From the IMG/VR virus record IMGVR_UViG_3300044647_001247, positions 1 to 64,000 of that record: DNA of 64,000 nucleotides; one strand, written 5' to 3'. The position numbers and the translations under genes are program-made. Shown one piece after another: positions 23,579 through 64,000 of the stretch (positions within the stretch are counted from its first letter, which is position 1; every line of letters begins with the position of its first letter). The notes below the pieces were generated by a model that was not told where the DNA came from, did no database searches, and worked only from the letters and a program-made list of their open reading frames with translations. The stretch is from a virus.

Positions 23579-26332
23579 ATGCAGTTATATAATGCTCTAG
23601 ATCTAAAAGCTGGTAAAAAAGCTGAACATAAGAAGATGGGTACACTTACCCAGCCAATTCAGTTTTTGCCAGAAAAAGAGAAAGATGATGAATGGAGGTC
23701 TCACAATCTTGACTGGCTAGAGTTCCAAGGAATGAAGCAACTTAGACGTAATGCTCGTAGATTAATGAAAAACTACAAGCTTTCTAAAGGGCTAATTGAC
23801 AAAACAGACTATATTATAGAAGAAGATAATGAGATGGCTGATCTAATAGACACTCTAACTAAAGAGGATGAATCAGCTTTAGAACTCAAATTCTATCCTA
23901 TTATTCCCAACGTAGTAAATGTTCTATGTAACGAGTTTTCTAAGCGTTCTTCTCGTATTATGTTTAAAGCCGTAGATGATATTTCTTATAACGAGATGTT
24001 AGAAGAAAAAAGAGCTATGCTTGAAAACGTCCTTTTACAGGATGCTGAACGTAAGATGATGATGCAAATGCTCAATATGGGAGTGGAGTTAGATAGTGAA
24101 GAAATGCAAAAAGCAACAGCTCCTGATAATTTAAAACAACTTCCTGAGATAGAATCATTCTTTCGTAAAGACTATAGATCAATGATTGAGGAGTGGGCTT
24201 CTCATCAAATGAGTGTAGACGAAGAAAGGTTTAAAATGCAAGAACTTGAAGAACGTGCATTCCGTGACATGCTTATTACAGATCGTGAGTTTTGGCATTT
24301 TAGAATGATGGAAGATGACTATGAGCTAGAACTTTGGAATCCGTTATTAACATTCTATCATAAATCTCCTGATGTACGTTACATTTCCCAGGGAAACTGG
24401 GTAGGTAAGATGGATCTCCTATCTTTACCAGACGTTATTGATAAGTATGGTTGGATGATGACTCAAGAACAATTAGAGTCTTTAGAATCAGTTTATCCTG
24501 TCCGTTCTTCAGGTTATATGATACCAGGTTATCAAAATGATGGAAGTTATTATGACGCTACAAAATCTCATGACTGGAATACACAAATGCCTTCTCTTGC
24601 TTATAGACAACATATGTCTATACATGATAATCAATTTGGTACAGGTGATATTGTAGAATGGATTCTTTCAGATTCTGAAGATGTAGTGGATTTTGGTAAA
24701 TCTCATATGCTTAGAGTTTCCACTATTTATTGGAAGTCTCAACGTAAACTAGGTCATCTTACTAAAATCACAGAAGAAGGTGAAATTATACAAGAAATAA
24801 TTAGTGAAAAATACAAGGTTACAGATAAACCATTGTATAACACAGCTTTATATAAACAAAAGTCTAAAGATAACTTAATATTTGGTGAGCATATAGATTG
24901 GATTTGGATTAATGAAACATGGGGAGGCATTAAGATTGGACCCAATAGACCAGCTTTCTGGGGTCAAAATAATCCAGGAGGTATAAATCCTATCTATTTA
25001 GGACTTAATGGAGGTAAACCAGGACGTATTCCATTTCAGTTTAAAGGTGATAATACATTATATGGTTGTAAGCTTCCTGTAGAAGGAGCAGTATTTGGAG
25101 ACAGAAACTCCCGTAGTACATCTATGGTAGATCTTATGAAACCCTACCAAATTAGCTTTAATATTGTAAACAACCAAATAGCTGATATATTAGTAGATGA
25201 GCTTGGAACAGTTATTCTATTGGATCAAAATTCTCTACCACGTCATTCTATGGGTGAAGATTGGGGAAAGAACAATTTAGCTAAGGCTTATGTAGCTATG
25301 AAGAATTTTCAGATGTTGCCCTTAGACACTTCCATCACTAACACTGAGAATGCATTAAATTTTCAGCATTATCAAGTGTTAAATCTTGAGCAAACAAATC
25401 GTTTACTATCTCGTATTCAACTTGCTACATATTTTAAAAATCAAGCATTTGAAGTGATTGGTTTGAATCCTCAACGTATGGGAGCTCAAATAGCTCAACA
25501 ACAAACAGCTACGGCCGTAGAACAAGCTATGAATGCTAGCTATGCTCAAACAGAACAATACTTTATACAGCATAGTGATAATCTAATGCCTAGAGTTCAT
25601 CAGATGAGAACTGACCTGGCTCAGTATTATCATTCCACTAAACCTAGTGTAAGACTAACATACATCACGTCTAAGGATGAGAAAATGAACTTTGAGATGA
25701 ACGGTACAGACCTTCTTCTTAGAGATCTTAATATATTCTGCACTACTAAAACTAATTCCCGTGCTGTAATGGAGCAGCTTAAACAACTAGCTATTAATAA
25801 TAATACCACCGGAGCTTCTATATACGATCTTGGAAATGTTATTAAATCTGAATCTATAGCTGAACTCACAGGTGTTCTTAAAGCTGCTGAAGAAAAAATG
25901 CTTGCTCAAAAACAACAAGAGCAGCAAATTCAGCAGCAAATGCAGCAAGAACTTATGGCTAGTCAGGAAAAACAAAAACAAATGGATCTTCAAGCTCAGG
26001 CCGATCGTGATGACAAAATGATACAGAAAGACATCACAGTGGCTGAAATACGGGCTGCAGGATATGGTTCAGCTGTAGATATAAATGAAAATAAGCAGTC
26101 TGACTATCAAGATGCTTTAGAAGGGATTAGAAAGCAGGAGAATTATCAAGAGCAAATGAACTTTAAACGTGAGCAAGAAGTAAATAAAACAAGCACTAAT
26201 CAACAAAAACTACAATTAGATAGAGAAAAGTTGCAGGCTCAAAAAGAAATAGCTGACAAGCAATTACAAATTGCTAGAGAAAACAAGAACAAATATGATG
26301 TAAAATCATCTAGTAAAAAGACAGGTAAATAA
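23579..26332 (+). CDS. portal protein (crAss-like)
   Basis: 917 aa after terL; YPIIPNVVNVL, WINETWGGIKIG, GCKLPVEG, SMVDLMKPYQ; long Q-rich C-terminal barrel helix. Confidence 0.9.
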   Translation: MQLYNALDLKAGKKAEHKKMGTLTQPIQFLPEKEKDDEWRSHNLDWLEFQGMKQLRRNARRLMKNYKLSKGLIDKTDYIIEEDNEMADLIDTLTKEDESALELKFYPIIPNVVNVLCNEFSKRSSRIMFKAVDDISYNEMLEEKRAMLENVLLQDAERKMMMQMLNMGVELDSEEMQKATAPDNLKQLPEIESFFRKDYRSMIEEWASHQMSVDEERFKMQELEERAFRDMLITDREFWHFRMMEDDYELELWNPLLTFYHKSPDVRYISQGNWVGKMDLLSLPDVIDKYGWMMTQEQLESLESVYPVRSSGYMIPGYQNDGSYYDATKSHDWNTQMPSLAYRQHMSIHDNQFGTGDIVEWILSDSEDVVDFGKSHMLRVSTIYWKSQRKLGHLTKITEEGEIIQEIISEKYKVTDKPLYNTALYKQKSKDNLIFGEHIDWIWINETWGGIKIGPNRPAFWGQNNPGGINPIYLGLNGGKPGRIPFQFKGDNTLYGCKLPVEGAVFGDRNSRSTSMVDLMKPYQISFNIVNNQIADILVDELGTVILLDQNSLPRHSMGEDWGKNNLAKAYVAMKNFQMLPLDTSITNTENALNFQHYQVLNLEQTNRLLSRIQLATYFKNQAFEVIGLNPQRMGAQIAQQQTATAVEQAMNASYAQTEQYFIQHSDNLMPRVHQMRTDLAQYYHSTKPSVRLTYITSKDEKMNFEMNGTDLLLRDLNIFCTTKTNSRAVMEQLKQLAINNNTTGASIYDLGNVIKSESIAELTGVLKAAEEKMLAQKQQEQQIQQQMQQELMASQEKQKQMDLQAQADRDDKMIQKDITVAEIRAAGYGSAVDINENKQSDYQDALEGIRKQENYQEQMNFKREQEVNKTSTNQQKLQLDREKLQAQKEIADKQLQIARENKNKYDVKSSSKKTGK

Positions 26333-26448: not shown

Positions 26449-27723
26449 ATGGATACCCAATCAAATGTACAGACTAATGTGCAACAAGTAGATGTTGATA
26501 TTGATAGCTGGTTAGGTGCTCCTGGTGCAGAAAGCATTGTGACAGCTACATCAACCGATGCAAAAAAACCAGAAGCAAAACCAAGTATTTTTAGTAAAAA
26601 AGATGTAGATCTTAGTTTTATTGATGATGAACCAGCTGATGATTTAGAAGGTGGTGACACTCCTGATAAATCTAAAGACACTGTTCCACGTGGAACATCC
26701 ACTGAAAACATCTTTGATGAGTTAAATAAAGATGATGAAGATTTTGATGATAAGAAATCAAAACCAGGTCGTCCTAAAACTGAAAAATCAGGACTTGTTG
26801 AGTTTCTAAAGAAACGTATAGAGTCTAAAGAGATGTTTGCCTTTGATGATTATGATGAAAGTAAGCAAAGTCTTGATGATTATTTAGTTGGTCTTGGAGA
26901 AAAAGACGTAGAAGAACTCTGGCAAGCTAATGTAGAAAACCTTAAGCAAGAAGTTGCTGCTAAAACTCCAAAAGAGTTTTTTGAGTCTTTACCAGATGAA
27001 CTTCAATATGCTGCTAAATATGTGATGGATGGAGGACAAGATCTTAAAGGATTGTTCCAAGCTCTAGCTCAAGTTGAACAAGTGAGATCTTTAAATCCCA
27101 CTGACGAGAATGACCAAGAAGGTATTGTTAAATCATATTTACAAGCCACTGGTTTTGGTAATGAGGAAGAAATTGAAGAAGAAATTACCACTTGGAAAGA
27201 TCTTGGTGTATTAGAAAAGAAAGCTAAACAGTTTAAACCTAAACTGGATCAAATGCAAGAACAGATTGTTCAATCTCAACTTGCAGAACAGGAAGGTAAA
27301 AAACAACAACAAGAGCAAGCTGCTCAAGCTTACATGCAGAATGTATTTGAAGCTTTGAGACCAGCTGAAATCAACGGACTGAAGCTAGACAAAAAGACAC
27401 AAGCTCAATTATACAGTGGTCTTGTTCAGCCTCAATATCCTTCTATAAGTGGACGTCCTACTAACTTATTAGGACATCTTTTAGAGAAATATCAGTTTGT
27501 AGAACCAAACTACTCATTGATTGCAGAAGCTCTTTGGTTACTATCTAGCCCTGATGACTATCGTTCTGAATTAAAAAAACAGGGTAAGAATCAACAAGTT
27601 GAACAAACAGTGCGTCAGCTAAAAACAGAACAAAGTCGTAAAAATGCTTCATCCTACCAAGAAGAAGAACCAGAAGCAAGAACACGAAAAATAGCTAGAC
27701 CTACAAATATATTTAAACGTTAA
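26449..27723 (+). CDS. putative capsid scaffolding protein
   Basis: Acidic disordered N-terminus plus coiled coil; lies between portal and MCP. Confidence 0.65.
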   Translation: MDTQSNVQTNVQQVDVDIDSWLGAPGAESIVTATSTDAKKPEAKPSIFSKKDVDLSFIDDEPADDLEGGDTPDKSKDTVPRGTSTENIFDELNKDDEDFDDKKSKPGRPKTEKSGLVEFLKKRIESKEMFAFDDYDESKQSLDDYLVGLGEKDVEELWQANVENLKQEVAAKTPKEFFESLPDELQYAAKYVMDGGQDLKGLFQALAQVEQVRSLNPTDENDQEGIVKSYLQATGFGNEEEIEEEITTWKDLGVLEKKAKQFKPKLDQMQEQIVQSQLAEQEGKKQQQEQAAQAYMQNVFEALRPAEINGLKLDKKTQAQLYSGLVQPQYPSISGRPTNLLGHLLEKYQFVEPNYSLIAEALWLLSSPDDYRSELKKQGKNQQVEQTVRQLKTEQSRKNASSYQEEEPEARTRKIARPTNIFKR

Positions 27724-27755: not shown

Positions 27756-29375
27756 ATGCCTACCCCAAGTTTAAACAATGGTATTTTCCTACGGGATACC
27801 AGCTACCAAACTAGCTCTCACGTAGATTCTTATCACCTTTCAAATCTGCTTAAGAGTGCAGAACCAACTGACTTAGGTCCTGTTGATCTGTGGGCTATGG
27901 CACAGAAGGTAGAAATGCCTTTATATCAAATGTCCAGTTTTGGTGGAAAGAACGTCATTATGGTTGATAACAACCGTGGTGAATACAAGTGGCAAGTTCC
28001 TGTTGCTCAAGATCTTCCTTATATTTTAGAAGATGTTGAATCTGCAAACACCACTAAAGGTCTTGATGGTCAATCTTTCAAGATTAAAATTAACAAACGT
28101 TCTTTTGGTAATGGTGACATTATCACTTATGACAAGTATAATGGAGTTGAAATGTATGTCACTGCAGATGATATCATACCTGCTGGTGATGGTTTCATTT
28201 ACACTGTACAACTTGTAAATAGTGATAGCACTCGTTTCTTAGAGAACCGTTACTTAAAAGTGGGAACTAAATTCTTCCGTAAGAGTTCTGCTCGTGGTGA
28301 ATATGGTGAGCGTTTTTCTGATCTTGGTAGTGTGAATGGTGGTTTCCGTGAATTTTATAACTACGTTGGTGGTGCTGAAGCTCACGTACACTATTCTATT
28401 AGCTCTCGTGCAGACTTGATGTTAAAAGGTGGTCTTCGTGCTGATGGTACTGTACCTGTTATTGAATTGTGGAGAAACTTTGACAAAAATGTTGATCCTT
28501 CTTTAAATAGTTTAGAAGATATTGCTTCTAAAATGGGTAAAGACTATGTTAAGAAAGCTTATGCTTCTGGACAACTCACTCGTTCTTTCCTCACTGCTCT
28601 TGAGTCTGCACATCTGACCAAGATTGCTAATGACATTGAGAACTACTTAATGTGGGGACAGGGTGGAAAGGTGAAGCAAGATGGTCCAGATGATATCAGA
28701 TTATCTGTAGGTCTTTGGAAACAACTTGATAACTCTTTCAAACGTGTTTATAACAAAGCTTCTTTTAACTTAGATCTTTTCAAATCTGAAATCTTCAACT
28801 TCTTTAATGGTAAGGTTGAATTTAAAGGACCAGATCCTAAACGTTCACTGGTTGTACAAACTGGTATGGGTGGTATGCGTCTTGTAAATGAAGCCATTAA
28901 GCGTGAAGCTATCAACTCAGGTCTTGTTATTAATGCTTCTGAGGTGGGTGCCATCACAGGTAAAGGTATGGATCTGAACTTTGGTTTTGCTTACACTCAA
29001 TACGTTATTCCGTTCTTGGCTAATGTTAAGTTTGTATTGAACCCAGCGTTTGATAATATTCATACTAATGATATTGAGAATCCTATTATAGATGGTTTCC
29101 CTCTGTCTAGCTACAACTTCATCATATTTGATATCACTGAGAATACTAATGACAACATCTTCTTGTTGAAATTATCTTGGGATAATCAATTGAAATGGTT
29201 CTATCAAAATGGTACTATGGATTACATGGGACGTAGTCAAGGATTCCAGTCTTCTGGAAACTTCAACGGATATCGTGTATTCATGACACAAACAATGCCA
29301 GCTATTTGGGTTAAAGATCCAACCAAGGTGTTAAAGATTGTTATGAGAAATCCTGTAACTGGTGGTTCATTCTAA
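27756..29375 (+). CDS. major capsid protein (HK97 fold, crAss-like)
   Basis: Position; biased high-expression codon usage; spine-helix KIANDIENYLMWG; TGMGGM; C-terminal IWVKDPTK. Confidence 0.9.
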   Translation: MPTPSLNNGIFLRDTSYQTSSHVDSYHLSNLLKSAEPTDLGPVDLWAMAQKVEMPLYQMSSFGGKNVIMVDNNRGEYKWQVPVAQDLPYILEDVESANTTKGLDGQSFKIKINKRSFGNGDIITYDKYNGVEMYVTADDIIPAGDGFIYTVQLVNSDSTRFLENRYLKVGTKFFRKSSARGEYGERFSDLGSVNGGFREFYNYVGGAEAHVHYSISSRADLMLKGGLRADGTVPVIELWRNFDKNVDPSLNSLEDIASKMGKDYVKKAYASGQLTRSFLTALESAHLTKIANDIENYLMWGQGGKVKQDGPDDIRLSVGLWKQLDNSFKRVYNKASFNLDLFKSEIFNFFNGKVEFKGPDPKRSLVVQTGMGGMRLVNEAIKREAINSGLVINASEVGAITGKGMDLNFGFAYTQYVIPFLANVKFVLNPAFDNIHTNDIENPIIDGFPLSSYNFIIFDITENTNDNIFLLKLSWDNQLKWFYQNGTMDYMGRSQGFQSSGNFNGYRVFMTQTMPAIWVKDPTKVLKIVMRNPVTGGSF

Positions 29376-53389: not shown

Positions 53390-54045
53390 GAAACGTTATT
53401 TCAAGAATACGTACACAGGTTAAGGCTGTTAGGCAAGATGCTTTCTTGACTGATCGGGCCATTTATGCTTTTATATTAAAGCATAGTAAGTGGCTCATGA
53501 AAAGAGAAGATAGTAAAAATAAACTTCTTGGTTATTCTGGTATTATACAAACCTTGGATTTTGTTGAATTAGAAGAAATTGATAAAGTGGAAGCTAAGTG
53601 TACAGGAGTATCTTCAGATTGTGTTATTAAAAGAACTAAATCTGTAATGCCTGTATTTATGCAGGGATATTATGGTCCACTAATTAGAAGTGTAACTTCT
53701 TTAGATGCATCTGAAGAACTTCAAATTACCAATCCTAGTACGTATTTGGTAATGAGTAGAAGCAAAAACTTCAAATATAATAAAACTAAATACTATTGGT
53801 ATTTAAATGATTATTTATATTTTCCTAATTTAGAATGGGATGCTATTCGTGTAGAAGGAATATTTGAAGATGATATTTCTAATTTTACTTGTGCACAAGA
53901 TAGTTGTGTTCAGAAAGTTGATCAACCTTTTAATGTACCTGATTATCTTTCTGGTGAGATAGAAAATAATGTATTTAAAGATCTTGTAGGAATGCTTCAA
54001 CTACCCTCAGATGTAAGTGCAGATAAGCAAAATATAAGTAGATGA
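53371..54045 (+). CDS. tail ring/tubular protein
   Basis: YYWYLNDYLY..IRVEGIFEDD..F.VP.YL; crAss-like synteny. Confidence 0.7.
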   Translation: MGRTTIGNVISRIRTQVKAVRQDAFLTDRAIYAFILKHSKWLMKREDSKNKLLGYSGIIQTLDFVELEEIDKVEAKCTGVSSDCVIKRTKSVMPVFMQGYYGPLIRSVTSLDASEELQITNPSTYLVMSRSKNFKYNKTKYYWYLNDYLYFPNLEWDAIRVEGIFEDDISNFTCAQDSCVQKVDQPFNVPDYLSGEIENNVFKDLVGMLQLPSDVSADKQNISR

Positions 54046-54908
54046 AAACAGAACTTTCATATAAAACATTTGATGAACTTCTTAGTGAGGTGGCAACAGA
54101 CTTTGCCACTTATAACAATGAGGGGATGATTGAACCAGGTCAACTTATCAAGGTGGCTCAAAGAGTTAGTTATGATTTGGGTCTTAGAATACATGGTACA
54201 AAAGAAAAAGTTTTAGAGGTAACAAATAAAAAAACAAAGCTTCCTGATGATTTTTATGTTTTAAACTATGCTTATTTATGTGGTAAGTATAGTGTTACAA
54301 ATGCTGTCCTATCAGGAAGACAAACAGAAGATGTTATTTTAAATAGTTCTTATTGTTCTAAATGTGGAGAGCCCGATCCTACATGCACTTGTGAAAAAAC
54401 ATACACTATTGAATGTAACACAGGAGAGAAGATATTTGTACAGGTGGTTGAAAAAAGAAAATATGAAACCAGGGTGTATGATAGTTTTACACCTATCAGC
54501 ATTGCAACATCTACTGGAAGAATAGATGCTCTAGATGATTCTAAACCAGCTGGTTATATTAAGAACAAGTTTATATACACTAATATAGAAGAGGGAAGTT
54601 TGTTTATATCTTATGAAGGTGCTCTAGAAGATGAACATGGAAACTTGTTAGTATTAGATCACCCTATGATTAATGAATATTATGAATATGCTTTTAAGCA
54701 AAGGATTCTTGAAAATCTATACATTAATGGAGAAGATGTAATGCAAAAAATGCAACTTATAGAACAGCGTCTTAGAGCTGCTCGTAATAATGCTTTAACA
54801 ATAGTGAACACTCCAAATTTTTCAGAAATGAAGAAATTATGGGAAACAAACCGTAAAGCTCAATATGGACGATATTATAATATGTTCAAATCAGGAGAAA
54901 GCTGGTAA
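54042..54908 (+). CDS. tail ring/tubular protein
   Basis: KLPDDFY..IYTN.EEG.LFISY..DEHGNLLVLD. Confidence 0.7.
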   Translation: MKTELSYKTFDELLSEVATDFATYNNEGMIEPGQLIKVAQRVSYDLGLRIHGTKEKVLEVTNKKTKLPDDFYVLNYAYLCGKYSVTNAVLSGRQTEDVILNSSYCSKCGEPDPTCTCEKTYTIECNTGEKIFVQVVEKRKYETRVYDSFTPISIATSTGRIDALDDSKPAGYIKNKFIYTNIEEGSLFISYEGALEDEHGNLLVLDHPMINEYYEYAFKQRILENLYINGEDVMQKMQLIEQRLRAARNNALTIVNTPNFSEMKKLWETNRKAQYGRYYNMFKSGESW

Positions 54909-55275
54909 CACCTTCAGACGTTGCAGCACAACTATACAGTTTACAACTTATGGATGTAAGCTTGTTATTGCTGTAGTGGATAGTGTTAAAAAAGAGGTGG
55001 AGAAATTATATAAAAAATACAAGATTGATGAGGAATTTGATGATGATGCAGAAGGGGCATTAGTAATGCCTGATATGAAAACTTATTATTTACTTCTAGG
55101 AAAGGCGTTCATCACTCATAACACTATAGCTCATGAAGTGTTTCATGCATCTGTAAGAATTACAGAACATCGTGGAATAACTGATGAAGAAACTCAAGCT
55201 TGGATGGCAGGGCACATTACAGAGATATTATATAAGTTTTTAGAAAAAAAGAAGTTAGAAGTAAAACATGGCTGA
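54865..55275 (+). CDS. zincin metallopeptidase-like protein
   Basis: TIAHEVFH (HEXXH) with downstream EETQAW third ligand. Confidence 0.75.
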   Translation: MDDIIICSNQEKAGNTFRRCSTTIQFTTYGCKLVIAVVDSVKKEVEKLYKKYKIDEEFDDDAEGALVMPDMKTYYLLLGKAFITHNTIAHEVFHASVRITEHRGITDEETQAWMAGHITEILYKFLEKKKLEVKHG

Positions 55276-58200
55276 GCAACAACAAAATCCTGGAGTGATC
55301 ACTAACACCTTTAGTAATGGTATGGTGAAAGACTACAATGAAACATTTGTAGGAGAAGGATTATATACTCATGCTCGCAATGTTGTAAGTAATTCACATG
55401 ATGGTCAGCTTGGTGTAAAAGGTAATGAGCCAGCTAACTTAAGTTGCATCACTCTTCCTTATAGCTTAATAGGATGTATTCATCTTTCTGATGATCAATG
55501 GTCTGTATATACAACAGATGATACTAATTCTGAGATAGGAATATTTGATGAAAGTCAATGCACTTATACAAAGGTGGTAAATGATCCATGTTTAGGATTT
55601 AAAAGATCTAACTTAATTACAGGTGCTTCACGTAAACGTTATGATTGCGATAGACCTGTTTATTGGGTTGATGCACTGAATCCAGATAGATTTATGGATC
55701 TTAGTAATCCCCCTTTTAAATATATAGAAACTATAGTTGATGGTTGTAAAGTAAAAACTATAACACAACCTTTACAGCTTGATTGTGAAAAGATAAGACT
55801 TGCATCTTTAATACAACATCCTTGTTTAATCTTAAATAAAGGAAAAGTTGCAGGAACTTTACCTAATGGTTCTTATCAAGTTGCTATAGCTTACACTGAA
55901 GATGGTGTTAGATTAACCGGGTATATTGGAATATCAGAAGTACAATCATTATTTACACATGAAAATGTTAGTTCTTCTTTAGAACTATCAATTACTACTA
56001 TAGATACAACATTTGACGAATTTGAGTTAGTTGTAATTGGTCGTATTAATGGTACAACAGTAGTTAAAAAAATAGGAAACTACTCAACCTCACAAGGTAA
56101 AATATACATTGACAGGTGGGATCAAGAGTTTGAAACAGTGCCAATTAGTCAAGTGGTATTTAGAGGAGACTCTTCTGAAAAAAGTGATGCTATATACGAA
56201 GTGAATAATTATTTATTAAAAATTGGAGACTATTCAAAGTTTAAATTTAATTATCAAAAACAAGCTAATAATATAAATGTTAGTTGGACAGCTGTTCAAT
56301 ATCCTTCTAATTATTATTTTAAAGGTGGAAATAATACTGGTTATTTAAGAGATGAACAATATTCATTTTTTATAAGATGGGTATACAACACTGGTGAACG
56401 TTCTGAGTCCTATCATATACCTGGAAGAGATGCTCTAGCTAGTGATAGAACTTTAGTAATGGGAGATGATGCTTTTGAAACATCTGGTATAGATTCTATT
56501 ACAAGAGAAAGATGGCAGGTGTATAATACAGCCACTTTAGATAATCTAAATAGTTACACTCTTTCTGATGGAGGGCTTGTTATAGCATCAGGTAAAATGG
56601 GATTTTGGGAAAGCACTGAAAAATATCCAGATAACACTCCTGATATTTGGGGAACATTATGTGGAAAAAACATTAGACATCATAAGATGCCTGATGAAAC
56701 TACAGCTCCATCCTTAAATTTATTTTCAAATAATGGTAAATTTATTAATATTCTTGGAGTTAACTTTAGTAATATAACTCATCCTTTAGACAACCAAGGT
56801 AATCCTATACAGTCAATTGTAGGATATGAATTATTAAGAGGATCTAGAGAAGGTAATAAATCTATTATTGGAAAAGGACTGCTTAATAATATGAGGGAAT
56901 ATTCTATTCCTAATCAAACAACTAAAGGGCTTTTTCAAAATTATCCATACAATGATTTAAGACCAGATCCTTATTTAACAGATTCTCCTAATTTAGATGG
57001 TCAATCTGCATTAAAAGGACAAGCTAATGTTTCCACTTCAAAAATGAGTGGCTATAAAAAGAATATATTTTCATTTCATAGTCCTGATGTAACTTTTTCC
57101 AATCCTTTTTTAAATGCCAATGAACTAACTATTTATCAGGAAGTGTATGGTGAATCTAATGGTAGATTTGTTAATTCTTGGAAACATCCTAAATTTAAAG
57201 TTTTAAGTAATTTTAGTTCAGTTTTCGGAGATGTAGCTTCTATAATAAGCACAGTTCAAACAGCTCTTGGAGCACTTGGAGGAGGTCTTGATTTAAAAAT
57301 TGAAGCTGATAAAGATGCTCCTGTATCAACAGGACTAACTTTAAATCCAAACTATGCTGGAGATACAGTTACTGTTTTTGGTTCAGGTGCCTCACCTTTA
57401 ACTATTGCACAGTTTATTGCAGCAGGTGTTGCAAATGGACTTTTAATAGGTGCGTTGATAGGAACAGGTATTCTACCAGCAATGTATAAACAACAGTATT
57501 TAAGACTTTTTATATATTTAATTCCTAAAAAACAATACTCAGCTCAATATAATTCACATGGTGTTTATGATGGAGGAGCCATACCAAAAAAAATAGGTAA
57601 TAAAAGAAGAAAGATTAAAGAAGCATTATATATAGGAAGTGGAAATAGCCAGTTTAATTCTGACTATTTTGTTAATAACACAGCTAGAAGTAATGTAGTT
57701 GTTTTAGAAACTGAAAAAGATTTGGATGATCCAACCACTACAGACAATAGTAGAGTGACATTAGGTGAAGCAAATAGTAATTTATATCAAAATATTAAAA
57801 CAACTATATCAAGTCACTATGGTGCTTTAAAAATTAGCATACCTTCTCAATATGGTCAATTAGGTGGAATAAAACAATTTCCTATAAATGGAGGTTGTAT
57901 TTTTAACACTACACCTGATAAGACTAAAAAGTTTAATACATCTTCTCCACTTTTTAACGGAGACACTTATATAAATAAATTTACTGAAAAAAACACAATG
58001 TTCTTTTTCACTGATTGGATGATTGGTGAGCCTGATAGAACTGAATGGGATTACACTTTATATATGTATATTCCCTATCCAAGATTTTGGATAAATAATG
58101 TAGAAGAAAATGTAGCTTTTTTAGAAGCAGCTGATAATTATAGATCATTAGATAAAAGAACATCTGGTTTCTTACATGTAAGTTCTGGATATTTTTATTT

Positions 58201-59866
58201 ATTTAATTCTGGTGTTAGAGAGTTTTTTGTTGAAAGTGAGGTTAATTTAGCATATAGAGATTGGGAAGAAGATCCATCTAAGCGTCATTATGATTCTGAT
58301 AGATACACTGATCTTGATAGTATGTTTAGAAGTGACATTATAAAAAGTGGAAACTTTTATAAATATGATTATAACTTAAGTGTATCTAAATTATTTAATT
58401 CTCATATTACTTGGGGAAATATATTAGGTCTTGATTATGATCCTACCACTGCAGAAAAATGTTACGTATATAGACCTAGTAGAGTTAGATATTCTCTTCC
58501 TCAATTTCAAGAATCAAAAAAAGATAACTGGAGAATATATTTAACTAACAATTATAAAGATTTTGACTCTCCTGTAACATCTATAAAATCTGTAAATAAA
58601 ACAGGTGCTTTGTTTATGATGTCAAGACAGAGTCCTATGCAGTTTATGGGTGTAGAAGAACTGAAGCTAGATGGAACGGGTGCTAAAATTACAATAGGTG
58701 ATGGGGGGCTTTTTAATCAACCTTTACAACAAATTGTAAATACCGAAAGTTCTTTTGAGTATGGTTCTTGCCAAAGTAAGTATTGTTCTATTAATACAAT
58801 ACACGGTGTTTTTTGGGTGAGTCAAAATCAGGGAAAGATATTTCAGTATGCTGGACAAATAAAAGAGATATCTAAAAATGGTCTTAAGTGGTGGTTTGCT
58901 AGATATTTACCTAGTGAACTATTAGCAGCGTATCCCACCTATCCTTATTTTGATAACCCGGTAATTGGTGTAGGGGTACAAATAATGTATGACAATACTA
59001 ATGAGATTGTATATATTACTAAGAAAGACTATAAACCACTAAAAACCAATTTGTTATTTGACTCAAAAGGTTTTTATGAAATAAGTTCATCTAATGGTAA
59101 GGTGTACATTCCTTTAACTAACACTAGTTATTTTGAAGATGCTAGCTGGACTATATCATATGATCCAAACGGGAATGATGGTAAAGGTGCTTGGGTTAGT
59201 TTTCATGACTGGATACCTAGCTTTTTAATTCCTGGGAAAGCTCATTTTATGAGTGTCAATCAAAATTCTATATGGAAGCATAATGTAAGATGTGATAAGT
59301 TCTGTAATTTTTATGGTGTAGATTATCCTTTTGAAATTGAGTTTATATCATCTACGGGTCAGCAAGTTGTTTCTATGAGAAACGTAGAGTATATATTAGA
59401 AGCTTATAAAATTCACAATGAATGCAGAGATGAGTTCCATGTATTAGATGCAAACTTTGATCAGGCTATTATATATAATTCAGAACAAGTATCTGGACTT
59501 TTAGAACTAGAACTTAAGAATAAAACCAACCCGGTGGCAATGCTTAGTTATCCTCAGATAAGAGCACAATCTATAGGAATAAACTATTCTAAAGAAGAGC
59601 AAAAGATTAGATTTAATCAATTTTGGGATATAACAAAAGAAAGAGGAGAGTTTGCCCCAAATACAAACATTCCAATGTTTATTACAGAGGCTAATGGATA
59701 TAAGTTTAAAATCAATCCAGCTTATGTAAACTATCAAAAGTCACCATTAGAGCGTAAGAAGTTTCGTCACAATTTAAATAAAGTGTTCTTAAGAAAGTTT
59801 AAAAGTGATGATGTAAAGATGTTATTTAAAATATCTAATCAGAAAATACAACTTAGTCAAAGGTAA
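55268..59866 (+). CDS. tail stabilisation / muzzle protein
   Basis: 1532 aa; NTFSNGMVKD start, GYLRDEQYSF, HHKMPD, WVSFHDW; crAss-like position before the cargo genes. Confidence 0.8.
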   Translation: MAEQQQNPGVITNTFSNGMVKDYNETFVGEGLYTHARNVVSNSHDGQLGVKGNEPANLSCITLPYSLIGCIHLSDDQWSVYTTDDTNSEIGIFDESQCTYTKVVNDPCLGFKRSNLITGASRKRYDCDRPVYWVDALNPDRFMDLSNPPFKYIETIVDGCKVKTITQPLQLDCEKIRLASLIQHPCLILNKGKVAGTLPNGSYQVAIAYTEDGVRLTGYIGISEVQSLFTHENVSSSLELSITTIDTTFDEFELVVIGRINGTTVVKKIGNYSTSQGKIYIDRWDQEFETVPISQVVFRGDSSEKSDAIYEVNNYLLKIGDYSKFKFNYQKQANNINVSWTAVQYPSNYYFKGGNNTGYLRDEQYSFFIRWVYNTGERSESYHIPGRDALASDRTLVMGDDAFETSGIDSITRERWQVYNTATLDNLNSYTLSDGGLVIASGKMGFWESTEKYPDNTPDIWGTLCGKNIRHHKMPDETTAPSLNLFSNNGKFINILGVNFSNITHPLDNQGNPIQSIVGYELLRGSREGNKSIIGKGLLNNMREYSIPNQTTKGLFQNYPYNDLRPDPYLTDSPNLDGQSALKGQANVSTSKMSGYKKNIFSFHSPDVTFSNPFLNANELTIYQEVYGESNGRFVNSWKHPKFKVLSNFSSVFGDVASIISTVQTALGALGGGLDLKIEADKDAPVSTGLTLNPNYAGDTVTVFGSGASPLTIAQFIAAGVANGLLIGALIGTGILPAMYKQQYLRLFIYLIPKKQYSAQYNSHGVYDGGAIPKKIGNKRRKIKEALYIGSGNSQFNSDYFVNNTARSNVVVLETEKDLDDPTTTDNSRVTLGEANSNLYQNIKTTISSHYGALKISIPSQYGQLGGIKQFPINGGCIFNTTPDKTKKFNTSSPLFNGDTYINKFTEKNTMFFFTDWMIGEPDRTEWDYTLYMYIPYPRFWINNVEENVAFLEAADNYRSLDKRTSGFLHVSSGYFYLFNSGVREFFVESEVNLAYRDWEEDPSKRHYDSDRYTDLDSMFRSDIIKSGNFYKYDYNLSVSKLFNSHITWGNILGLDYDPTTAEKCYVYRPSRVRYSLPQFQESKKDNWRIYLTNNYKDFDSPVTSIKSVNKTGALFMMSRQSPMQFMGVEELKLDGTGAKITIGDGGLFNQPLQQIVNTESSFEYGSCQSKYCSINTIHGVFWVSQNQGKIFQYAGQIKEISKNGLKWWFARYLPSELLAAYPTYPYFDNPVIGVGVQIMYDNTNEIVYITKKDYKPLKTNLLFDSKGFYEISSSNGKVYIPLTNTSYFEDASWTISYDPNGNDGKGAWVSFHDWIPSFLIPGKAHFMSVNQNSIWKHNVRCDKFCNFYGVDYPFEIEFISSTGQQVVSMRNVEYILEAYKIHNECRDEFHVLDANFDQAIIYNSEQVSGLLELELKNKTNPVAMLSYPQIRAQSIGINYSKEEQKIRFNQFWDITKERGEFAPNTNIPMFITEANGYKFKINPAYVNYQKSPLERKKFRHNLNKVFLRKFKSDDVKMLFKISNQKIQLSQR

Positions 59867-62811
59867 TGAAACGGACAGATTCTATATTACAGCAGTTTTA
59901 TATGTCTAGGCTTCCTAAAGCTCAGATGGGACTAGCCATATCTGATGGTACAAGGGTGGCACCAAGACCAAAAGCTTTAACTGAAGCTGAATATCAAGAA
60001 AATGAACGTGCTAGAAAAATAACAAAAGAAGGCACTGAAAGACGAAATAAGCAAATTTTAGAAGAAAGACAAAAAGCAAGAAATACAAAAGGTACATTTA
60101 AGGAAAAGAACTTTAACATAGGTGAGAAGTTTAGAATGTTTCCTGGTAGTGTAGGTGGTGCAGGAGAACTCTTTGATGACTATATCAATCCTTTAAAGTT
60201 TGTTGGAGACATGGCTTCAAATCTAGGTAATTCTAGAACACCCCAAGAAGCAGCTCTAAATGTAGCAATGACAGCAGGACTTGGTGCTCTTGGATTTGAC
60301 CCATTAGGTAGTGGATTAAAATCTTCAGCTTTTAAAGAAGCACGTGCATCTTTTCCAAAATTTATAGATGAAGTTTCATATTCTATAAATAAACCTAAGT
60401 CTGTAGAACAAATAACTAATAAGAATTTATATAAAGAATTAGGATCTCCTTTGAATATTTCAGAAGGATTAAATAATCAAGGTGTATTTAGTTTAAAAAG
60501 ATTTCCTGACCATGTTGTAAAATTTGAGCCTGTTGAAACAGTAGGTAGAGGTATTGGTTATCCTGAATATACAAATTTTGATTTTGTAAGTGCTATGAAA
60601 AATATAAAAGATAAACCTAACATAGCAAAGGTTAAAAATCAACTTAATGTAGAAAATAACAAGAGAGCTCTTATAATGAATAGGATTGATGATGGATACC
60701 GTCCTTTAGATCTTAATCCTATCAATTATAGAAAAATGCCAGATGACTCAGTTCGTAAAATGTACTATGACTTAAAAGATGTTATTAACAATGATTTAGG
60801 TTTTGATTTTATGGGTAACAACTACCTATACAATCCTAAAACAAAAGATTTTTCATTATTTGATTTTTCTCCACAATTTAAAGCAGGTAATGATGGTAAT
60901 TCACAATTCTGGATTAATGATGTTTTAGGTAATACTAATAGTAATTTACTTGGTAAAGCTCAAGCTAATAAAAACTTAAAAACAGCAATTATATCTAAGC
61001 TTGTTAATGATCATAGAGTGGCTGGACAAAATTTATTTAAAGAGATTGGTACAGGATATACATTACGAAGTCATGCTGATATTTCAAAACTTCTTGATAA
61101 AGGTGATAAGTTTGCTTTTCAAAAATTTAATAATGCACTTAAAGATGTTGATATATATCAGCAAGGTGGTGTAATAAAAGATGACAGAGGACAATGGGCA
61201 CATCCAGGTAAAGTAACTCGTATATCTAGTCCTAATATAACTATGAAGGGTGTACCCTATCCTGTACTAGGTGTAGGTTCTAATGGTGAAGAACAAATGA
61301 TGTATCCAGGACAAGAATATAATTTTGGTGGTGCATCTTATGTAGATGAATATCCTATGATGAAAAATGGTGGAGAAATGATTAAACGTAAAGATGGTAG
61401 TTATTCTAAAAGAGGACTCTGGGATAACATTAGAGCTAATAAAGGCTCAGGTAAAAAACCTAGTAAAGAAATGCTAGAACAAGAACGTAAAATAAAATCT
61501 AAAGAAATGAAATACGGAGGAACAAATAACTCAGGCTTTGAAGCTTTACCAGAATATGTACAAGCTAAAATATTAGCTAACATGGGATATGGTGGATATT
61601 ATAATCCAATGATGGAAGAAGGTGGTGAACCTAATGGTGGCATGGCACTAGGTCAGATAATGGCTGTTTCAGATAAGATGAATAAGCTTCGTCAGTTTAT
61701 ATCTCCTGATAAAAACTTAGATCCATGGATTGCTTCTAAGCTTGCAGTTATGGATGATAGTGCAGATGCTATTGCTAATTATATGATGTACAATCCTGAA
61801 GCTCAGGGTGATGAAGAAGAAATCTCACAAATGAGTAGAGGAGGATATGTTGTAAGTAGAAGTAGTGCACGTAAGGGTAAGACACATAAAGTGACAGGTC
61901 CTGATGGAACTGTTAAATACTTTGGTGATTCTAAGTTAGGACAGCATCCTGATGATCCTGAAAGAAAAAAAGCATTCTATGCTCGTCATAAAAAGAATTT
62001 AGATTCTAATCCATATTTTAGAGCCTTTGCTAAAGAAACATGGCAGCAGGGTGGACAACCTGGTTTATCATTTTGGAATGCTAGTAAAACTCCACAAGGT
62101 GCTGTTACACCTACAGGAATGTCAAATTATTTTAATGATAATAAACAAGGTTTTGATCAAGCAAATTTTACTAAAAAGATGCAGGAGTTAAATCTTGATA
62201 CATCAAGTAATGTATCATTACAACAAGATATGATGAAAAAATATCCTGATCTTGTAAATCAAGTGATGTCTGAATATGGTGATACAAATGCAGGTAGATT
62301 TGATGATGGTATTATAGGAGCTAGAGTTATTAATGCTGCTAGTAAAATTCCTACTCAAACTAAACAAGTTCCTCCTCAAATACAACAATCAATGGCACCT
62401 CCTCCTGCTACATATAAAAATCCAAATGCAGGATATGTAGTTAATGTAAGAGGAGATGATAATGACGGAGCTTATTATTTTCCTAGCTCTGAAAACTTTG
62501 ACAAACTTAGTTCAGCAATACCTGGTGGTAAAGAATACAGAGATGGTTATAAAGGAGCAACAGTTAATATGACTAATGCAAACTTTATGAAACAATACGG
62601 AAACAACTACAAAGAAGCACTAGGTCAAGCATACAAACGTAATCCACAAAATCCTGAGCAGTATATTCCAATGCAAAGAAATGGAGGATCTACTTGGTCT
62701 GGTAATAACTGGTATCAAAATGGAGGTTTAGTAAATGGTGCAGAAATGGAAGTGACACCTGAACAAGCTGAGATGTTACGTCAACAAGGTTATGAATTTG
62801 AAATAATTTAA
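59866..62811 (+). CDS. putative virion cargo polyprotein with kinase-like domain and repeated [MFYW]xxGG motifs
   Basis: Position after the muzzle gene; eight motif copies delimit small modules; kinase-like signature at ~60440-60880. Confidence 0.75.
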   Translation: MKRTDSILQQFYMSRLPKAQMGLAISDGTRVAPRPKALTEAEYQENERARKITKEGTERRNKQILEERQKARNTKGTFKEKNFNIGEKFRMFPGSVGGAGELFDDYINPLKFVGDMASNLGNSRTPQEAALNVAMTAGLGALGFDPLGSGLKSSAFKEARASFPKFIDEVSYSINKPKSVEQITNKNLYKELGSPLNISEGLNNQGVFSLKRFPDHVVKFEPVETVGRGIGYPEYTNFDFVSAMKNIKDKPNIAKVKNQLNVENNKRALIMNRIDDGYRPLDLNPINYRKMPDDSVRKMYYDLKDVINNDLGFDFMGNNYLYNPKTKDFSLFDFSPQFKAGNDGNSQFWINDVLGNTNSNLLGKAQANKNLKTAIISKLVNDHRVAGQNLFKEIGTGYTLRSHADISKLLDKGDKFAFQKFNNALKDVDIYQQGGVIKDDRGQWAHPGKVTRISSPNITMKGVPYPVLGVGSNGEEQMMYPGQEYNFGGASYVDEYPMMKNGGEMIKRKDGSYSKRGLWDNIRANKGSGKKPSKEMLEQERKIKSKEMKYGGTNNSGFEALPEYVQAKILANMGYGGYYNPMMEEGGEPNGGMALGQIMAVSDKMNKLRQFISPDKNLDPWIASKLAVMDDSADAIANYMMYNPEAQGDEEEISQMSRGGYVVSRSSARKGKTHKVTGPDGTVKYFGDSKLGQHPDDPERKKAFYARHKKNLDSNPYFRAFAKETWQQGGQPGLSFWNASKTPQGAVTPTGMSNYFNDNKQGFDQANFTKKMQELNLDTSSNVSLQQDMMKKYPDLVNQVMSEYGDTNAGRFDDGIIGARVINAASKIPTQTKQVPPQIQQSMAPPPATYKNPNAGYVVNVRGDDNDGAYYFPSSENFDKLSSAIPGGKEYRDGYKGATVNMTNANFMKQYGNNYKEALGQAYKRNPQNPEQYIPMQRNGGSTWSGNNWYQNGGLVNGAEMEVTPEQAEMLRQQGYEFEII

Positions 62812-62815
62812 TATT

Positions 62816-64000
62816 ATGAAAATACGCATTACAAAAAAAGGATTGCCTAAAGCACAATGGCAAAATAGTCAAATACCAGGAGGTCAAGCTATTAATCCAA
62901 GAAAAGTAGCAGGAAAGGAAAACTTGACCTCTTGGAATGTTTTTGATAATGCACCACAGCAAGGTGTTCCTACACAATTTATTGATCCTCAATCAGTTGT
63001 AAACACAGAACGTAATGTTTGGAATTATAGTCCCTATCGTAATAGTCAAGGTGAAAGTATAACAGGTGATGAGTATTATAATCAATTTTGGACTCCTCCT
63101 AACACTCCTGCAAAAACTGCTCCTAATATAAATAAAAAATCTACTTATAAAAAAACAAATAACTTTAATGATTATTTTGCTGCAGGAGCAATGACATTAA
63201 ATGCTTTAGATAATAGACAAACTGATAAGGAGTTGGAAGCTTCTTGGCGGAATGGTCTTATTAGTCCTGGTATTATTGATTATTCTCAAAACAGAGGAGA
63301 TTATGAAATGAACACTGGTATGGTAGACCCTTATAATACAGGAGCAAAAAACAAAGGACAATTTACTAATTCTTTTTATACTTCACAGTTTCAAGAAGGT
63401 GGTATATTTACACTAAATGAGGTGCAACAAGCTATATTACCTAATATGTTATCGGTAGCTTATGAAAGAAACACACCTGCATCAACATATGTTAATCCAC
63501 CTAATAATTCATTAAAAATAGATTACACAGATGCTGCTGATTTTATTAAATCACAGGAAGGATTTATACCAAAAGCAAAATGGGACTATGCTCAATATAG
63601 TGTAGGATATGGCACAAAAGCTAAAAATAAGAATGAAGTTATTTCTAAAGAAGAAGCTGAAAATAGATTAAAATTAGAACTTGCTCCTGTAATGGAAAAA
63701 ATACAGAGCAAGCTTAAAGTTCCTATTAATTCAGGTCAACTTATAGCTCTTGCTTCTATAAATTATAATACAGGTTCTTTAGCAAATAAATTAATTGATA
63801 GAATTAATAAGGGTGAAAGTCCTGACATTATAGCAAATACTATTAAAAGCATGGCATTAACTGGTGTGGGTAGTAATAAAATATTACCGGGATTAGTTAA
63901 ACGTAGGAATGAAGAAGCTGGCTTATTTTTACGTGGTTATGAAAATGGTGGTGAAAATACAGAAATTATGAAAATACGTATTACAAATTCTCCTGAGAAA
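62816..64000 (+). CDS. putative virion cargo protein with GH24 lysozyme domain (partial; runs off the window, absent from ORF track)
   Basis: Open for 395 codons from the ATG at 62816; IKSQEGF..WDYAQYSVGYGT..LASINYNTG..LPGLVKRRNEEAGLF, flanked by FQEGG and YENGG. Confidence 0.85.
   Translation, partial: MKIRITKKGLPKAQWQNSQIPGGQAINPRKVAGKENLTSWNVFDNAPQQGVPTQFIDPQSVVNTERNVWNYSPYRNSQGESITGDEYYNQFWTPPNTPAKTAPNINKKSTYKKTNNFNDYFAAGAMTLNALDNRQTDKELEASWRNGLISPGIIDYSQNRGDYEMNTGMVDPYNTGAKNKGQFTNSFYTSQFQEGGIFTLNEVQQAILPNMLSVAYERNTPASTYVNPPNNSLKIDYTDAADFIKSQEGFIPKAKWDYAQYSVGYGTKAKNKNEVISKEEAENRLKLELAPVMEKIQSKLKVPINSGQLIALASINYNTGSLANKLIDRINKGESPDIIANTIKSMALTGVGSNKILPGLVKRRNEEAGLFLRGYENGGENTEIMKIRITNSPEK

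Follow-up and report, generated by a model that had tools for sequence, protein, structure and literature searches.

The question raised by the locus described here is whether a short Gly-Gly motif, repeated along two neighboring phage proteins, marks sites of cleavage or joints of an intact chain. The window, meaning the whole stretch of DNA that was analyzed, consists of the first 64 kb (64,000 nucleotides) of the IMG/VR record IMGVR_UViG_3300044647_001247, the full record measuring 109,819 bp with a completeness of 84% (CheckV). By its gene content, the source is an uncultured crAss-like phage with a predicted virion block of crAss type on the + strand, to which all coordinates given below refer. 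Two open reading frames (ORFs) follow a muzzle-like gene near the end of the window: ORF A (59866-62811), which encodes a putative, seam-punctuated mosaic cargo protein of 981 amino acids and starts at the stop of the muzzle-like gene, and ORF B (1045 amino acids), which begins at 62816 directly after A and runs past the window end at 64000 to base 65953 of the record. Both carry repeated copies of the motif [MFYW]xxGG, hereafter called the seam. A preliminary description of the window had interpreted A and B as polyproteins whose modules are released by a Gly-Gly-specific protease, or are threaded or packaged by means of the motif. The reading that we favor, tentatively and as somewhat short of probable, is that the seams are uncut junction peptides in ejected polyvalent cargo.

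Enrichment and consensus of the motif

Translation confirmed all eleven motifs listed in the preliminary description: YQQGG (61156), MKNGG (61360), MKYGG (61507), MGYGG (61582), MEEGG (61612), MSRGG (61831), WQQGG (62041), MQRNGG (62671) and YQNGG (62713) in A, and FQEGG (63389) and YENGG (63938) in B. Missing from that list was YNFGG (61318) in A, and B, followed to its end in the record, holds three more motifs, MEYGG, FKKGG and MAYGG. Counted by the pattern [MFYW]xxGG, which was defined post hoc after inspection of the sequence, A holds nine motifs and B five, giving 14 in 2026 amino acids. Composition-preserving shuffles (20,000 per ORF) yielded 1.28 ± 1.11 motifs for A, with none reaching nine, and 0.62 for B, with six of 20,000 reaching five. 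Enrichment over the rest of the proteome had been named beforehand as a check and was borne out: the other 108 ORFs of the record contain 21 motifs in 32,458 amino acids, and the rate in A and B together is 10.7-fold higher (Poisson p 1.5e-10). The residue at position −3 of GG dipeptides is M, F, Y or W in 14 of 21 cases in A and B versus 21 of 152 elsewhere in the record (Fisher p 7e-7).

Outside the record, an independent set of 119 homologues of A carries 11.4 motifs per 1000 amino acids, and proteins retrieved solely via the C-terminal 42 residues carry 9.4. In about 30 related contigs, the B-like gene has a density of 4.0, compared with 5.7-7.6 for the ORFs lying just upstream and 0.1-0.3 for the two ORFs downstream. 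The motif is limited to the first cargo genes and the large downstream cargo is without it; in the record, the four large cargo ORFs that follow B contain 0-2 motifs each.

The late definition of the pattern, as well as the two of the 14 motifs that fall inside folded domains, would be expected if the motif were an artefact, due to chance or to the richness of the proteins in glycine, methionine and tyrosine. Against this, shuffles that keep the composition never or almost never reach the observed counts, and the motif recurs in independent homologue sets at aligned, invariant columns, which makes such an artefact so improbable as to be hardly tenable. The motif pattern is real, conserved and widespread.

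A logo built from 1314 distinct GG sites of the 119 homologues shows P at −5, M>Y>F>W at −3, A, Q or E at −2, any residue at −1, the two glycines, and E or Y after them. In the same set, 64% of all GG dipeptides have M, F, Y or W at −3, against a background of 14%. The information of the logo peaks at this residue, three positions before the first glycine, which corresponds to P5 of a cut after Gly-Gly; P4 is mostly A, Q or E. The glycine codons are mostly GGT GGT or GGT GGA, matching the usage of the genome, and the signal therefore resides at the protein level. For the same reason internal translation starts from Shine-Dalgarno-like GGAGG were considered and rejected. The DNA between the motifs is not repetitive, as had been proposed.

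Module exchange at the seams

A search with A returned 658 homologues at E<=0.001, most of which cover only 8-30% of its length at 60-87% identity, and the modules of A recur among them in other orders and positions. Of 454 internal homology breakpoints, 69% lay at most 8 residues from a motif (26% for uniform positions), with a median distance of 3 residues versus 20 for uniform positions. Segments obtained by cutting 120 proteins at their motifs group over their full length into 33 families with at least 5 members, and single families have up to 15-19 different neighbors. The segments between motifs are thus separate families, as the preliminary description had it in speaking of unrelated modules. 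The alignment of homologues likewise bore out its claim of swappable modules with the motif at their boundaries, in that breakpoints fall on motifs and the GG columns are conserved: in two alignments whose columns average 12% (alignment A4) and 25% (alignment A5) identity, both glycines and the −3 residue are either invariant or reach at least 90% conservation. Many of the pieces between motifs are only 10-25 residues long, and motifs also stand in tandem.

Payload modules differ between the families. Relatives of A carry ART-PolyVal, YkuD, DUF5872, DUF3597 and DUF5754, and relatives of B carry M23, SLT or lysozyme. DUF5872 and DUF3597 were rejected as domains of A itself, as they map to modules of homologues that A does not have. 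Judged from these alignments, A and B are composed, in mosaic fashion, of small modules that move between phages.

Fused and split forms of ORF B

ORF B consists, in order, of an N-terminal handle (MKIRITKKGLPKAQ), a disordered stretch with FQEGG (63389), a GH24 lysozyme (63509-63937), the seam YENGG (63938), a second MKIRIT (63968) and a conserved core. The lysozyme module claimed in the preliminary description was borne out both by family and by fold: it matches PF00959 with 64 bits (cut-off 22.3) over the whole profile, residues 232-383 of the model give structural Z scores of 11-12 to GH24 muramidases and P22 lysozyme, and the E-G of its catalytic motif aligns with the E-G of 8b2s.

The second MKIRIT, at residue 385, stands directly after the lysozyme and YENGG, and the junction reads YENGG-ENTEI-MKIRIT (63938-63985). 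Among 30 relatives recognized by the core pattern, the two halves of B are fused in 21 and encoded by separate genes in 9. In the two split contigs L002 (8233-12008) and L003 (8168-11811), the upstream gene ends with GG and a variant of the C-terminal handle, and the downstream gene starts with MKMYKVRIKK...MAYGG. Most fused forms retain the internal Met of MKIRIT. As B is fused here and split at the seam elsewhere, a seam can join two parts covalently in one phage and coincide with a gene boundary flanked by handles in another.

Such fission and fusion exactly at the seam, together with extensive shuffling and breakpoints that fall on the motif, would suit the view that the seam is an evolutionary footprint only, each module traveling with its own cap or survivors having been joined at a neutral stop or start, and that its role is confined to separating folds. 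The DNA shared at the seams, however, amounts to at most ~5-6 bases (GGTGG), preceded by varied codons, which is too little for homologous recombination. Moreover, a peptide motif not under selection should decay, yet the seam is among the best conserved columns. We consider this explanation improbable.

Terminal handles

Nearly all proteins of the A family end with GG followed by a fixed element, xVxGxEM[ED]VTPEQxExLRxQGYxFEI[IL], and the distance from GG to the C-terminus is exactly 27 residues in 121 of 173 proteins. In A, this C-terminal handle, 27 residues after GG, is LVNGAEMEVTPEQAEMLRQQGYEFEII (62728-62808), modeled with a predicted local distance difference test (pLDDT) score of 79-87. 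In an exhaustive search with the last 42 residues of A, the true matches among 107 representatives, proteins of 45-2135 residues, had the element at their very C-terminal end and nowhere else. DUF7210 was tried as a family for the C-terminal handle and dropped, its 15.9 bits being sub-threshold.

At the other end, proteins of the A family contain ...LPKAQxG or KMQKGG, and those of the B family begin with MKIRITKKGLPKAQ. The N-terminal handle of A is MKRTDSILQQFYMSRLPKAQMG (59866-59940), and starts of the LPKAQ/KMQKGG type occur in many homologues as well. Many proteins begin with the seam itself, for example MYYQQGG, placing motifs at residues 3-10. The two handles (N-terminal MKIRIT...LPKAQ; C-terminal GG and ~27 residues) are new here; no prior description of the seam motif or of the handles was found in the literature searched. 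A predicted complex between the C-terminal handle of A and the N-terminal 60 residues of B scored 0.16, the mark being 0.32, and thus speaks neither for nor against binding.

Structure models

AlphaFold2 models with family alignments were made of A 420-981 and B 1-640 (mean pLDDT 55 and 59). Confident domains were A 436-498 (beta-rich), A 661-727, the C-terminal 27 residues of A, the B lysozyme (232-376) and a B core (425-578). Prediction of structures had been named as a way to see whether the motifs lie in linkers, and the outcome was largely but not wholly in line with this: 12 of 14 motifs are at the edges of confident domains or in low-confidence stretches, and two, YNFGG of A and FKKGG of B, fall within domains that are folded. 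For MKYGG, MGYGG, MSRGG, WQQGG and YENGG, the helix before the seam holds the −3 residue in its final turn, and the next module opens with a strand directly after GG, so that the "linker" is only a few residues long. A fold search with the model of A 420-981 found no match in the PDB at E<=0.001 and, in BFVD, only uncharacterized viral proteins that share one module. With the model of B it returned the lysozyme only, the core being barely probed.

Comparison with the cargo of crAss001

The counterparts by gene position are C1 (gp45) and C2 (gp46) of Bacteroides phage crAss001, which like A and B are the first genes after the muzzle, gp45 following gp44. In crAss001 both are virion cargo, presumably the first to leave the particle and involved in forming the channel, a role that A and B may share. 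One segment of gp45 (214-245) is resolved in the tail barrel and one (425-552) on the portal, and the authors model gp45 as a single polypeptide running from the tail barrel through the portal to the capsid (Bayfield et al. 2023, PMC10172136). In translation, gp45 shows GG at 21 places, and A[YF]GG or FAEGG motifs stand on either side of each resolved segment. Three of these dipeptides, at 427/428, 434/435 and 447/448, lie within the residues built as 425-552 (PMC10172136); the first belongs to a seam-like AFGG, and their presence there speaks against cleavage at such sites.

For a peptide-mass fingerprint we also used published MALDI (matrix-assisted laser desorption/ionization) peaks from bands 1-10 of a gel of crAss001 virions (PMC6235969, supplementary file 14). 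It recovered gp44, gp47/50, gp49, gp20, gp26/22, gp25 and gp23 in bands 1-9; gp45 gave only chance-level matches in bands 1-10, which bears in neither direction on whether gp45 is full length.

The N-terminal part of gp45 is Gly-rich, hydrophobic and taken to insert into membranes; in A, residues ~129-150 (AALNVAMTAGLGALGFDPLGSG) are Gly/Ala-rich and moderately hydrophobic by composition. The likeness has limits. No homology between A or B and gp45 is detectable (BLAST E >0.1), neither A nor a profile of A 420-981 matches PDB chains, and the 110-kb record is without a match to the portal-binding family PF25725 (crAss_CARG1) at E<=10. The comparison with gp45 is therefore one of analogy. Compared with the crAss001 cargo, A and B are far more mosaic and carry the MKIRIT/LPKAQ and C-terminal handles as well as enzyme modules such as lysozyme.

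The crAss001 particle also bears on a further possibility, namely that the seam is an uncut short linear motif whose many copies are recognized by an assembly chaperone or by a part of the virion, be it the portal, the lumen of ring or muzzle, or the inside of the capsid. Such binding would load or order the chain. Twelve copies of gp45 segments bind the portal and ring proteins in crAss001 (PMC10172136). Multivalent docking of this kind would account for a conservation above the need of a linker, and for motif copies at the extreme N-terminus, just before the C-terminal handle and in tandem. The binding partner would be a hypothetical one; in the AlphaFold2 models, the −3 residue is often part of the preceding helix rather than of a free peptide, and the density of motifs differs several-fold between A-like and B-like proteins. 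We regard docking as quite unlikely.

Protease search and possible cleavage at Gly-Gly

Release of the modules by a protease would require an enzyme, and a search for a cysteine or JAB protease had been named beforehand as a check. It gave no support to the proposal: no adenain, ULP, C39, OTU, JAB or prohead protease was found in the record or in 12 relatives, with the limit that the positive controls for C5, S77 and OTU gave no signal. Specifically, Pfam scans of record ORFs of at least 110 amino acids returned no peptidase family, and the same held for A and B. In the 12 relatives, which are 96-100% complete, C39, C48, S78, ClpP and Prok-JAB were not found by searches whose controls worked; those for C5, S77 and OTU returned nothing from the relatives and nothing from their positive controls either. 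MPTase-PolyVal (PF18818), for which the control worked, was likewise without a match in the record at E<=1.

The only protease-like gene of the record, as far as its predicted signature goes, is an ORF of 136 amino acids (54865-55275) between ring protein 1 and the muzzle. It was found by a regular-expression search for HExxH, and its signature THNTIAHExxH...R..D.E..W..GH is invariant in 21 homologues, including H90, E91 and H94. It matches phrog_1365 (function unknown), its Atlas neighbors are small viral hypothetical proteins, and it has no Pfam or NCBIfam family match. It may be a candidate minimal zincin metallopeptidase. The family is present in eight of the 12 near-complete relatives; the other four have no match even at E<=10 and still keep seam-rich cargo, and the protein is therefore not an obligate partner of the motif. 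A second HExxH (GYHEAFHGVF) occurs at residue 959 of a 3834-residue cargo protein (record 72346-83850), where Peptidase_U32 is sub-threshold (E 0.002). N4-type virion RNA polymerases have been reported with a metallopeptidase domain (PMC5512222).

Two kinds of known processing resemble what is seen here. Adenain, African swine fever virus (ASFV) pS273R, Ulp/SENP, the C39 leader peptidases and coronavirus PLpro are Gly-Gly-specific processing systems, and their sites share with the seams a conserved Gly-Gly that follows a hydrophobic residue and separates functional units. In adenain, PLpro and double-glycine leader sites, however, the hydrophobic residue is at P4 (M/L/I-x-G-G or L-x-G-G), whereas in the seams it is at P5, and a cognate cysteine protease was not found. 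In T4 and phiKZ, short motifs in many internal proteins are the sites of trimming by head proteases, T4 gp21 cutting after L/I-x-E and phiKZ gp175 after S/A/G-x-E. Here again a short motif recurs in many proteins predicted to be packaged, along with terminal targeting peptides that might be removed; the motif is a different one, S78 and ClpP were not found with working controls, and the gene between portal and capsid looks like that of an acidic scaffold. Autoproteolytic release of domains has also been proposed for polyvalent proteins (Iyer et al. 2017, PMC5512222), and with head-protease trimming it offers a precedent for cleavage in the present case.

On this basis polyprotein processing can be weighed. 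The seams would be cut after Gly-Gly by a phage or host protease, at head maturation or after ejection, the modules would be freed and the handles removed as targeting propeptides, with the HExxH protein as the obvious phage candidate. The signature of the latter is of zincin type and thus outside the cysteine clans known to cut after GG, and cleavage would produce many products of 10-25 residues, would leave tandem sites redundant and would act on motifs at residues 3-10. These points, the P5 position, the failure to find any known GG-specific or prohead protease family or MPTase-PolyVal, and the four relatives with seam-rich cargo and no HExxH protein make processing possible but unlikely. 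That the seams are true processing sites, at which a dedicated but unrecognized protease (possibly the HExxH protein, of 120-136 amino acids, or a host enzyme) cuts in the particle or after ejection, strips the handles and frees a set of small modules, particular to each phage, with GG C-termini, appears unlikely to us. Of the polyprotein proposal in the preliminary description, the mosaic of modules with the motif at their boundaries is supported and the Gly-Gly protease is not; the "effector cocktail" is poorly matched by the many short pieces and tandem motifs, and the alternative named alongside it, threading or packaging by means of the motif, fits the data at least as well as a protease.

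Proposed uncut junctions in ejected cargo

As the preliminary description had stated, A and B are encoded directly after the muzzle in a crAss-like virion block. Because genes for terminase, portal, Crass_capsid, ring protein 2, ring protein 1 and the muzzle-like protein precede them, A and B are predicted to be virion cargo. In the reading that we favor they would be packaged in the virion and ejected as "polyvalent" cargo, each a string of small, independently folding modules (here kinase-like, small beta and helical domains and the GH24 lysozyme) exchanged among phages and joined by P-x-[M/Y/F/W]-[A/Q/E]-x-G-G-[E/Y]. The hydrophobic residue would close the upstream module, often in the last turn of its final helix, and Gly-Gly would form a tight, flexible stop or hinge. 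Each bead could then fold, unfold and refold alone, both during storage of the chain and on its passage through the portal and the channel of the tail. The N-terminal (MKIRIT...LPKAQxG) and C-terminal (GG and ~27 residues) handles would probably serve as docking or incorporation tags.

Several results favor a chain that stays uncut over one that is processed: the inter-motif pieces of 10-25 residues with their tandem motifs, the motifs at residues 3-10, where there is nothing upstream to release, and the failure to find a Pfam peptidase in the record or any of five control-backed families in the 12 relatives. Other points weigh against it, and several of these speak for cleavage. Invariant glycines and a conserved −3 hydrophobic residue, in short linkers at module boundaries, exceed the need of a plain linker and suggest recognition by a partner, possibly a protease. 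The GG at its fixed distance of 27 residues from the C-terminus resembles a site of propeptide removal, and cutting at GG would make the products of the fused and split forms of B identical. A conserved HExxH protein is encoded beside the muzzle. In addition, the evidence from gp45 is by analogy, and the AlphaFold2 models are of low overall confidence. The candidate readings are partly compatible and not all mutually exclusive.

Relation to other modular phage proteins

The concept of polyvalent proteins (Iyer, Burroughs, Anand, de Souza and Aravind 2017, PMC5512222) fits the architecture of A and B, and delivery into the host together with the DNA is predicted by it. Polyvalent proteins likewise unite numerous effector and cell-wall domains, unrelated to one another, in a single chain, show extreme mosaicism and are encoded among late virion genes, and relatives of A and B carry ART-PolyVal, lysozyme, SLT, M23 and YkuD. 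The text of PMC5512222 contains neither "glycine" nor "linker" and appears not to describe a conserved junction peptide or handles. The releasing domain proposed there (MPTase), which is frequent although non-obligatory in polyvalent proteins, was not found in this record.

The view of the seam as an evolutionary footprint has a parallel of another kind. In the T-even gp38 adhesins, conserved glycine-rich motifs separate hypervariable, swappable segments and are not cut. Gp38 differs from A and B in being a receptor-binding tip with a polyglycine sandwich fold instead of internal cargo, and its motif is different.

Layout of ORF A

Following the N-terminal handle, a kinase-like module of A (~185-425; 60418-61140) ends just before the first seam. 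In the Atlas model its structure neighbors are Pkinase clusters, with template modeling (TM) scores of 0.53-0.58 by row over ~220 residues, and it has no Pfam match; a kinase-like fold is a lead only. The seam YQQGG (61156-61170) stands at the edge of a confident beta domain, and 53 homology starts fall within A 421-440. The small beta-rich module that follows (A 436-498; 61171-61359) is modeled with pLDDT >90, holds the single buried motif of A, YNFGG, and represents segment family 10, whose 30 members have 9 different left and 11 different right neighbors.

After the seam MKNGG (61360-61374), the GG of which is at least 90% conserved, comes a basic module (61375-61521; segment family 7, 38 members with 15 different left neighbors) that ends in MKYGG, in a low-confidence stretch. 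A helix module of 25 residues ending in MGYGG and a 10-residue piece ending in MEEGG occupy 61522-61626. Segment family 0, to which this region belongs, has 116 copies in 103 proteins, and residues M573, Y575, G576/577 and G586/587 are invariant or at least 90% conserved. A helical module (A 588-655; 61627-61845; segment family 2, 104 members) ends in MSRGG and an alpha/beta basic module (A 661-725; 61846-62055; pLDDT 71-92; segment family 1, 109 members with 19 different right neighbors) in WQQGG.

The remainder before the C-terminal handle is a low-confidence, variable stretch (62056-62727) ending with MQRNGG and YQNGG. Its last part, 62683-62727 (GGSTWSGNNWYQNGG), resembles GGSVxLTSSxxxGNQWY repeats of very large bacterial proteins (e.g. 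P0245, 3842 amino acids with 24 stretches), a likeness that is probably convergent or due to chance. Multi-stretch matches to the C-terminal query of A came from bacterial repeat proteins with such units and were judged unrelated.

Virion gene block

The virion block on the + strand includes genes for terminase (21037-23235), portal (23579-26329) and Crass_capsid protein (27756-29372), followed downstream by ring protein 2 and ring protein 1 (54042-54908; PF24228). The ORF between portal and capsid genes (26449-27720) encodes an acidic, Glu/Gln/Lys-rich protein of 424 amino acids that is helical by prediction and has no family match; position and composition suggest a scaffolding protein. The same features led us to reject it as a hidden protease, and this slot contains no prohead protease gene. 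The muzzle-like virion protein (1532 amino acids, 55268-59866) matches phrog_37948 and phrog_15100, annotated as "virion structural protein", and precedes the cargo genes.

The closest cultured match of the capsid protein is that of the Leptolyngbya (cyanobacterial) phage Lbo-JY46, with 28.5% identity over 99% of the length, which is nearer than that of any gut crAss phage. Among INPHARED phages, A 431-981 has no match, and for B the lysozyme module alone finds one. Downstream of B lie ORFs of 1000, 1103, 3834 and 2193 amino acids encoding large cargo. The 2193-residue protein (record 83835-90416) has a PD-(D/E)XK nuclease match (PF12705, residues 488-608, E 7e-5) that is barely over the cut-off.

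Significance for crAss-like phages

Ejected cargo governs the first minutes of a crAss-like infection, in which the envelope is crossed and the host taken over, and seams and handles address the question how the phage stores such long chains, passes them through a narrow tail and diversifies them. One junction peptide and two handles are common to hundreds to thousands of mosaic proteins, for which they set the module boundaries for structural and functional work, and they could be used as sequence markers for cargo genes in uncultured phages. Whether the seams are cut or uncut separates ejection as beads on a string from polyprotein processing, and if they were true processing sites, they would define a polyprotein-processing system in a tailed phage. 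Together, seams and handles point to a simple grammar for the exchange of payload modules among phages.

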